Origin: an uncultured Desulfocapsa sp.
GTDB lineage: Bacteria; Desulfobacterota; Desulfobulbia; Desulfobulbales; Desulfocapsaceae
Length of the DNA stretch: 64,000 bases
Direction: 5' to 3'
Assembly (NCBI GenBank): GCA_964621915.1
Contig: CAZUPS010000009.1
Coordinates: 14,200-78,199 of the forward strand
The notes beneath the pieces were generated by a model, which saw only the letters and a program-made list of their open reading frames with translations, did no database searches and was not told the origin of the DNA. A program made the position numbers and the translations under genes. Below are positions 36,567 through 37,967 of this stretch, one piece after another (position 1 is the first letter of the stretch; each line of letters begins with the position of its first letter).

Positions 36567-36836
36567 CTAGCAGCAAGGACCTTCAATCCCCAGCAACTCA
36601 TTGATAATTCCACGTACACAGCCTTCCCCCGCTTCCACAGTAATTGCTCCACTTGGACAGTTACGCATGCAGGCGCCGCACTCCATACACAAATTTCGAC
36701 GGACTATTACCGCTTTTTTAGCCTCTATCCGAAAAACTCCATGGGGACAGACGATACTACACATTGTGCAACCGATACATTTTTCCTGGTCATACTCAAG
36801 TGTCACCACATCTTCTAAATAACGAAATTCTGCCAT
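36567..36836 (-). CDS. hgcB: HgcB, the 2x[4Fe-4S] ferredoxin partner of HgcA
   Basis: 89-aa ORF with the clusters CIGCTMCSIVCP and CMECGACMRNCP (the HgcB-type C(M/I)ECGA motif), an extra Cys in GEGCVRG and a C-terminal Cys pair (GPCC). It lies 6 bp downstream of hgcA. Confidence 0.85.
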   Translation of the reverse strand: MAEFRYLEDVVTLEYDQEKCIGCTMCSIVCPHGVFRIEAKKAVIVRRNLCMECGACMRNCPSGAITVEAGEGCVRGIINELLGIEGPCC

Positions 36837-36842
36837 ATCTAT

Positions 36843-37967
36843 CTAGCCCATCCATAGTGAAGCAGTCCAAAGCCCAAGTCCTGTAACCAGGATGACAAAC
36901 TGCAACGGCATTGCCCGAAGCATTTCCTTGCGCACACCATTGAGTGAGGTATAGGTCGATGCCCCGGTAAAAGCCATGCCAAACCAGGAAGATATTGCCA
37001 GGGCAATAAGTGGCCACGATACCTTTGCAAGTAGTGAATAGTCCTGAGTAAAAACGCCGTATAGCGTAAAGAGAAGGGAAAATAGAAACAAACCGCTGAT
37101 CGCGCCCTTGAAACTAAATGCTCTGCCCGGTATCCAGGGCAGGAGTAATGGTGTCACAATGGCCCCGGCAATAATTCCTGAAAGCACGGCAAGTGCAGGG
37201 GGAAGAGCGTGGTGAAACATTGCCTGCAGAAATGTGCCATCTCCTGCGAAACCTGCAAGCAGTAAAAGAGCAAATATAACTGGCAGGCCCTGTTTCAAGG
37301 CCAGCATAATATCAACCGGAACCAGTACCAGCCGCTCCTTAAAGGGAAAACGTTTAAGGCGCATTTCTGGAGTGGTCCGGTTTCCATTTTCAAGATATTG
37401 TGGCAGGTCACAAAGCATTACCGGGCCGTAGTTAACAGAAAAACCGGAATATTTTTTAACCTTAAAGGCTGCCACACCGGTGGCTCCAAGTTGAGGAACT
37501 ATCAAACGACGATGGCTCACGACCTCATGCAAGCGTGATGCGTGAATACGATCAACCAGCTCCTCGGTACCAAACGTTCCTTCCCCTGCAGCACACCAGA
37601 CATTAATCCCCTTGGTATCGAGCACCAGTATCCAGCCATCATAGCCACCAAGTGTTCGACGTAGCAGATCAAAGGTCATTTTATAGTTCGCCGTAACAAA
37701 TACCGGACGACTACTATCGGGCTTTCCTATTGCATAGAGACCGGGGTCAACCAAAAATCTATCCCGACCGATATTCCAGCGTGCCAGGTAATGACCGCGC
37801 AGGTCCCGCCACAATAGCTCTTCGCCAACAACGGGTACGGCACCAACCGGAGTCGTCATGGTATCGAGCACAAAGAACTGTTCTGCTGAAGGAAGACGAA
37901 ACTCGCCGGCCCCCTTTGGGACAGGCTTTGCCATGGGCAAAGATATTAAGGGTTGCATCGTTTCCAC
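36843..37967 (-). CDS. hgcA: HgcA, the corrinoid protein of mercury methylation
   Basis: 374-aa ORF (GTG at 37967, ATG at 37958). It has a corrinoid-binding domain with the cap-helix LVLDTKGINVWCAAGEGTFGT, VSHRRLIVPQLGATGVAA, and then about 5 C-terminal TM helices. Confidence 0.88.
   Translation of the reverse strand: METMQPLISLPMAKPVPKGAGEFRLPSAEQFFVLDTMTTPVGAVPVVGEELLWRDLRGHYLARWNIGRDRFLVDPGLYAIGKPDSSRPVFVTANYKMTFDLLRRTLGGYDGWILVLDTKGINVWCAAGEGTFGTEELVDRIHASRLHEVVSHRRLIVPQLGATGVAAFKVKKYSGFSVNYGPVMLCDLPQYLENGNRTTPEMRLKRFPFKERLVLVPVDIMLALKQGLPVIFALLLLAGFAGDGTFLQAMFHHALPPALAVLSGIIAGAIVTPLLLPWIPGRAFSFKGAISGLFLFSLLFTLYGVFTQDYSLLAKVSWPLIALAISSWFGMAFTGASTYTSLNGVRKEMLRAMPLQFVILVTGLGLWTASLWMG

Follow-up and report, generated by a model that had tools for sequence, protein, structure and literature searches.

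An hgcA-hgcB gene pair with a glutamate variant of the cap-helix motif in an uncultured Desulfocapsa-related bacterium

The window analysed here is a stretch of 64,000 nucleotides from an uncultured Desulfocapsa sp. (assembly GCA_964621915.1, contig CAZUPS010000009.1, positions 14,200 to 78,199), and its coordinates are counted below from its first letter. The window contains hgcA and hgcB. Because the hgcAB pair is accepted as the genetic marker of microbial methylmercury production, every lineage that bears it matters for predicting the sites of neurotoxin formation. It is close to certain that both open reading frames (ORFs) are genuine hgcA and hgcB orthologues, located on the chromosome of a Desulfocapsa-related bacterium (Desulfobulbales). 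Judged from the sequence, the pair is intact and probably functional, and we read the Glu at HgcA residue 129 as most likely a natural variant that is tolerated, and not an inactivating change. Beyond this variant, the locus represents a known system, found in a new lineage, and is a textbook example without new biology. The first-pass annotation of this DNA had likewise called the system known rather than novel, and rightly so.

Identification of the hgcA-hgcB pair

The two ORFs were found where they had first been annotated, with the 6-bp gap between them; the earlier account had left their strand (minus) unmentioned. The features of the pair are as follows.

36843-37967, minus strand: hgcA coding sequence, 374 aa, GTG start, TAG stop at 36843-36845
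36837-36842, minus strand: spacer of 6 bp from the hgcA stop to the hgcB start, both genes on the same strand
36567-36836, minus strand: hgcB coding sequence, 89 aa, 2x[4Fe-4S] ferredoxin, ATG at 36834-36836, TAG at 36567-36569

The genes hgcA and hgcB are separate and not fused, with a TAG stop codon between the ORFs. The spacer contained no promoter-like or terminator-like site, and both genes are probably translated from a single transcript.

HgcA matched the NCBIfam model NF040863 (HgcA_corrinoid) with 415.1 bits (cutoff 275, E = 1.9e-124), and the match spanned HgcA residues 44-372 and profile positions 1-324 of 325. HgcB matched NF040864 (HgcB_ferredoxin) with 110.9 bits (cutoff 99, E = 1.9e-32), and the next family reached 57 bits. 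[quoted passage not shown] A total of 7950 HgcA homologues were found at E <= 1e-10. The closest genomes were uncultured Desulfocapsa metagenome-assembled genomes (MAGs), with an HgcA identity of 76–78%, followed by other Desulfobulbales.

HgcA has two kinds of paralogue for which the first ORF might be mistaken, namely CFeSP (AcsC/CdhE) of the Wood-Ljungdahl pathway and the non-methylating fused HgcAB-like proteins. Pfam assigned the ORF only to the generic CdhD family (PF03599, 47.5 bits, residues 73-163), as it assigned HgcB to Fer4 family domains, and several databases label close homologues of HgcA as "acetyl-CoA decarbonylase/synthase subunit gamma". However, the paralogue identity was refuted by the curated HMM scores. 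The model of the CFeSP large subunit (gamma), NF003195, gave 63 bits (cutoff 306) and was matched only over its last 124 profile positions (323-446 of 450), and the fused HgcAB-like model NF043039 gave 195 bits, below its cutoff of 285. CFeSP at full length comprises N-terminal Fe-S and TIM-barrel domains, which the window HgcA does not have. In CFeSP, a Thr occupies the position of Cys125 and there is no transmembrane domain. The ferredoxin of the window is a separate gene after a stop codon, and no other Wood-Ljungdahl gene was present among the approximately 50 scanned ORFs of the window. The corrinoid domain was at least 58% identical to that of each of 194 other HgcA proteins, and 29–32% identical to that of two CFeSP large subunits. 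The identities and the model scores also speak against a clustering with the corrinoid paralogues of carbon monoxide dehydrogenase, an outcome on which the original call was to be given up. We consider a paralogue mistaken for HgcA exceedingly unlikely.

Domains and predicted structure of HgcA

HgcA is made up of two domains, corrinoid-binding and membrane.

37398-37838, minus strand: corrinoid-binding domain, approximately residues 44-190, Rossmann-like alpha/beta, based on PF03599, 2h9a, Foldseek and the predicted strand/helix pattern
36849-37343, minus strand: transmembrane domain with five long helices at residues 209-241, 246-274, 284-303, 312-331 and 345-373, based on the AlphaFold2 model

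The AlphaFold2 model of HgcA was built on 56 homologues, with a mean predicted local distance difference test score (pLDDT) of 83 and a predicted template modelling score (pTM) of 0.75. The helices of the modelled membrane domain, between residues 209 and 373, are 20–33 residues long. A Kyte-Doolittle scan (19-residue window, threshold 1.6) detected three hydrophobic regions, which correspond to the first three of the five predicted helices. The block of about five C-terminal transmembrane helices reported at first is thus borne out by the model, with the hydropathy scan detecting three of them.

Foldseek matched the HgcA model best to 9a0b_A of the published HgcAB model (E = 1e-19; 328 columns, 42% identical). 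Next came CFeSP chains, which matched the corrinoid domain only, with a root-mean-square deviation (rmsd) of 2.7–2.9 Å over approximately 126 columns. The sequence search of solved structures returned CFeSP large subunits only, such as 2h9a (E = 4e-10, residues 71-184). No solved HgcA structure was found by the sequence search, and the fold search gave only the integrative model 9a0b from 2020.

Conserved residues of HgcB

The reference for single residues is Pseudodesulfovibrio mercurii (Desulfovibrio desulfuricans) ND132, in which HgcA and HgcB were characterised experimentally. Four features of HgcB were located in the window.

36744-36779, minus strand: cluster-1 motif C20-IG-C23-TM-C26-SIV-C30-P31, from the translation, conserved in the alignment
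36654-36689, minus strand: cluster-2 motif C50-ME-C53-GA-C56-MRN-C60-P61, which contains CMECGAC, from the translation and the alignment
36618-36620, minus strand: Cys73 in GEGC, where most other lineages have GVGC
36570-36575, minus strand: C-terminal Cys88-Cys89, equivalent to C94/C95 of ND132, from the translation

The alignment comprised 73 HgcB sequences that come after hgcA in other genomes. The form C(M/I)ECGA is a marker of hgcB, and two CX2CX2CX3CP motifs on the same contig as hgcA serve as its criterion (PMC10087281). The window HgcB carries both motifs, one of them in the C(M/I)ECGA form, on the contig of hgcA. The two clusters, CMECGAC, the Cys of GEGC and the C-terminal Cys-Cys pair had all been annotated beforehand, and each was recovered in the 89-aa ORF. 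In ND132, C73 of HgcB is crucial, and C94/C95 are important (PMC11588087). Every residue reported as essential in ND132, namely HgcA C93 and HgcB C73 and C94/C95, has its equivalent in the window. HgcB R58, N59 and P61, which the published model puts at the interface with HgcA, are also present.

The cap-helix variant Glu129

The cap helix of HgcA carries the variant in its last motif position.

37581-37604, minus strand: cap-helix motif N122-V-W-C125-A-A-G-E129, read directly from the sequence
37593-37595, minus strand: Cys125 codon TGT, equivalent to ND132 Cys93, the proposed Co-thiolate ligand
37581-37583, minus strand: Glu129 codon GAA, equivalent to ND132 Lys97; AAA to GAA is a single transition

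The first-pass annotation had quoted the cap helix without remark on its motif. The quoted string, GINVWCAAGEGTFG, is present at HgcA residues 120-133, but its motif is not canonical, with E in place of K. The identical protein was found in three independent assemblies; therefore, Glu129 is real and not a sequencing error.

The residue at the Lys97 position was compared in three sets of homologues. The 120 closest homologues had Lys (107) or Glu (13) at this position, and the Glu forms were all among the nearest relatives. The second set comprised 150 diverse representatives of clusters at 50% identity, drawn from 1.84 billion proteins. Of these, 140 had the canonical motif with Lys at its end, three had Glu, which makes the variant rare, one had Arg and one Asn, and five were without the canonical motif, two of which have Lys at the aligned position. 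Four representatives (P0121, P0122, P0126 and P0240) were far above the usual length, at 724, 621, 512 and 512 aa; their HgcA part is C-terminal, and they could be N-terminal fusions or gene-call artefacts. Among the loci of 80 GTDB species, Glu was present in four Desulfobulbales MAGs and three Deferrimicrobium-like MAGs, the latter approximately 49% identical to the window, and His was present in one Holophagae MAG. In all seven Glu loci from other genomes, hgcB comes after hgcA. N122, V123, W124, Cys125 and G128 were invariant in 56 homologues. The last motif position thus varies more widely than the published motif list would permit.

The K and E forms were interleaved within the Desulfobulbales clade in a neighbour-joining tree without support values. 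Accordingly, the Lys-to-Glu change occurred at least twice, probably three or more times. No HgcB position tracked the K/E state in the 73-sequence alignment, and no HgcA position except 129 united the three Glu groups while being rare among the Lys sequences. A compensatory change to Glu129 was therefore rejected, with no co-varying position in HgcA or HgcB.

Selection on hgcA and hgcB

The ratio of nonsynonymous to synonymous substitution rates (dN/dS) was calculated between the window and two Desulfocapsa MAGs that share the gene order livHMGF-rhodanese-hgcAB. The dN/dS of hgcA was 0.105–0.115 overall, 0.08–0.10 in the corrinoid domain and 0.12–0.14 in the membrane domain, and that of hgcB was 0.03–0.06; dS was saturated (>1), which makes these values approximate, though far from neutrality. 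Both genes are under purifying selection.

HgcA was 76–78% identical to its orthologues in the two MAGs, whereas five adjacent genes (liv and the rhodanese fusion; 38003-42248) were 88–95% identical. The dS of hgcA was similar to that of the neighbouring genes; the difference thus reflects only a faster evolution of the HgcA protein. The lower identity and the non-canonical motif would both be expected if the pair were a decaying remnant from which selection had been lost. However, both frames are intact, the dN/dS values of both genes are low, and all cluster and functional cysteines are kept. The 13 related Glu-type clusters are also full or near-full length. A decaying remnant is very unlikely.

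Proposed mechanism and the meaning of Glu129

The mechanism is taken by homology from the work on ND132 (PMC7305189, PMC11588087), and cofactor binding, methyl donor and methylation are attributed to the window proteins on the same basis. The sequence itself shows to which families the proteins belong, their domain architecture, the essential residues, the adjacency of the two genes and the purifying selection. The five C-terminal helices would anchor HgcA in the membrane. The N-terminal domain of HgcA would bind the corrinoid, whose cobalt would have Cys125 as its putative thiolate ligand. A low-potential electron from the two [4Fe-4S] clusters of HgcB would give Co(I), which S-adenosylmethionine would methylate to methyl-Co(III). 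The methyl group would then pass to Hg(II), probably handled by HgcB Cys73 together with Cys88-Cys89, and the product would be methylmercury.

Several observations weigh against a functional pair, besides the saturated dS mentioned above. The high-stringency hgcA criterion of the consensus hgc protocol is the motif N[V/I]WC[A/S][A/G/S]GK (PMC10087281), and the window HgcA, with NVWCAAGE for the canonical NVWCAAGK, falls outside it. According to the same protocol, isolates without the motif residues were never shown to methylate, or there were none to test (PMC10087281). The moderate tier of the protocol asks for a Hg-MATE HMM bitscore of 100 or more (PMC10087281); the 415 bits of the window HgcA are from the NCBIfam model. 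The motif NVWCAAGE appeared in no paper of the searched literature. The cap region, residues 124-129, was modelled with a pLDDT below 50. The amino-acid change of hgcA was 2–4 times faster than that of its neighbours (dN of 0.14–0.15 vs 0.03–0.07). No ArsR-type regulator gene adjoined the pair among the ORFs scanned. The physiological role of hgcAB is not known to have been settled in any organism. The first-pass annotation had taken the pair as the marker of Hg(II) methylation capacity. The pair itself was confirmed, but the capacity is less certain than was implied, as the high-stringency motif failed.

The charge reversal at residue 129 might also leave an intact HgcAB-type corrinoid methyltransferase whose activity is altered. 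Hg methylation might then be weaker or abolished, the docking of HgcB might be changed, or another methyl acceptor might be used, and the pair would be no reliable methylation marker in this lineage. The predominance of Lys in the close homologues and in the diverse representatives points to a strong general constraint. In the published model, the neighbouring Gly (ND132 G96) contacts HgcB Arg58, which puts residue 129 near the interface. Non-canonical motifs count as unproven in the consensus protocol, and hgcA evolves faster than its flanking genes in the clade. On the other hand, the essential Cys and the remaining motif are unchanged. The site tolerates change, since Glu had at least two independent origins there and His, Arg and Asn are found as well. 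There is no compensating or co-varying substitution in either protein, both genes are under purifying selection and still adjacent, and the interleaved K and E forms are as expected of a nearly neutral one-transition toggle. We regard an altered activity as unlikely.

A more far-reaching proposal is that NVWCAAGE marks a functionally shifted HgcA, in which redox tuning, coupling to HgcB or methyl-acceptor preference has changed, the Glu form being an adaptive state and not drift. Such a shift could result from the reversed charge beside the Cys that ligates cobalt and beside the surface on which HgcB docks. The Glu form could be adaptive because of its repeated origin together with purifying selection, but we think this rather improbable. 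For K97 mutation data on ND132 HgcA, the literature search gave only an unrelated paper, and the main text of Cooper et al. 2020 is silent on K97. A functional pair with a tolerated variant is the reading that we prefer.

The start codon of hgcA

Two alternative starts of hgcA lie downstream of the GTG.

37956-37958, minus strand: alternative hgcA start, Met4 ATG
37932-37934, minus strand: alternative hgcA start, Met12 ATG

Another pipeline called the identical HgcA protein from Met12 (363 aa). However, the peptide upstream of Met12 (QPLISLP) is kept in relatives, one MAG has ATG and another GTG where the window has its GTG, and the dN/dS of the first 43 hgcA codons is 0.07–0.10. These sequence features make the longer form, or a start at Met4, more likely than a start at Met12.

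Genomic neighbourhood

Upstream of hgcA, a 271-aa gene (38003-38818, minus strand) encodes a fusion of a rhodanese domain (active-site loop CHSGKRS) and a partial rubrerythrin/ferritin-like domain. Its end is 35 bp upstream of hgcA, both genes being on the same strand, and livHMGF (38843-42248) precedes it. It is possible that livHMGF, the rhodanese gene and hgcAB are on one long transcript, because all gaps are short. Of the 80 GTDB-species loci, only the two Desulfocapsa MAGs had the rhodanese-rubrerythrin gene and the liv operon beside hgcA. A functional module of hgcAB with these neighbours was rejected, and the arrangement was taken as genus-level synteny. A horizontal-transfer island was also rejected; the GC content of hgcAB (0.47–0.50) is within the local range (0.40–0.52), and the dS of hgcA resembles that of its neighbours.

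The scan for promoters and terminators found sites no more numerous than in shuffled sequence. No tRNA gene and no Rfam family at threshold, the cobalamin riboswitch included, was found in the 64-kb window, and no mer genes were found among the scanned ORFs. The lack of a cobalamin riboswitch hit is despite a TonB-dependent receptor at 28524-30776. Otherwise, the window is ordinary chromosome, with transporters, many signalling genes and a MoxR/VWA/BatD-type operon.

The signalling genes are unusually dense at 9108-23359 and 30810-36425. They include two GGDEF cyclases, a PilZ protein, a response-regulator adenylate/guanylate cyclase and several PAS/hybrid histidine kinases. One of the GGDEF cyclases (35205-36425) has a Tll0287-like sensor and is convergent with hgcB. 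A 107-aa Ser/Gln/Lys-rich ORF (34464-34787, plus strand) had no Pfam hit and, among the fetched loci, was found only in a contig identical to the window.

A 355-aa ORF (42744-43811, minus strand) matched only the C-terminal half of a sodium:solute symporter profile (positions 223-404 of 406). A Sel1-repeat ORF (44158-44991) on the opposite strand starts approximately 350 bp beyond the start of the symporter ORF and leaves little room for the missing half. The ORF may be a truncated symporter or have a mis-called start. The operon at 51226-58663 (minus strand) encodes a MoxR AAA ATPase, DUF58, DUF4381, two VWA proteins, a TPR protein and a BatD-like protein. Between its two VWA genes lies an ORF (54290-54655) of the "23S rRNA-intervening sequence protein" family.

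Significance of the locus

The window copy adds a Desulfocapsa-related lineage of the Desulfobulbales to the carriers of hgcAB, and no paper in the searched literature mentioned hgcA together with Desulfocapsa. The copy also shows that the "diagnostic" motif can vary in its final residue. Any survey with N[V/I]WC[A/S][A/G/S]GK as a requirement would drop the window clade and at least one other Glu-type lineage because of the Glu in place of Lys. The natural Lys/Glu toggle is a ready-made test of the role of ND132 Lys97. If the functional shift were true, the Desulfocapsa-related clade would be either a blind spot of methylator surveys that filter on the motif or a natural hgcAB lineage that does not methylate.

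Comparison with known systems

The two-gene layout of the window is the same as that of ND132. In both, HgcA has a corrinoid domain followed by five transmembrane helices, and the cap-helix Cys is C93 in ND132 and C125 in the window. Both HgcB proteins have two CX2CX2CX3CP motifs and a pair of Cys at the C-terminus, and Cys73 bears the same number in both. The window differs in having Glu129 for Lys97, an N-terminal extension of approximately 32 residues, GEGC for GVGC, and an HgcB of 89 aa that ends in GPCC (residues 86-89), whereas the pair of ND132 is C94/C95.

The Lys-type HgcA proteins of Desulfobulbales (Desulfomarina profundi DGMP_21300 and Desulfobulbus/Desulfobulbaceae MAGs) have 59–76% full-length identity to the window HgcA and the same domain order. 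The C-terminal half of the Desulfobulbales HgcB (AGEGCVRGIINELLGIEGPCC) is nearly invariant, the window included. The Lys-type Desulfobulbales keep NVWCAAGK, whereas the window is in a 13-cluster subgroup with NVWCAAGE.

The homology with the CFeSP large subunit (AcsC/CdhE; 2h9a, 2ycl, 4djd) is limited to the corrinoid domain, over approximately 114–126 residues with an rmsd of approximately 2.7 Å. CFeSP differs by its N-terminal [4Fe-4S] domain and TIM barrel, by the lack of a membrane domain, and by Thr for the cap-helix Cys. Isolates with fused HgcAB-like proteins showed no Hg methylation in culture (PMC10087281). In these proteins, such as Q8U2U9 of Pyrococcus furiosus, both parts are on one polypeptide, whereas the window encodes HgcA and HgcB as two genes.

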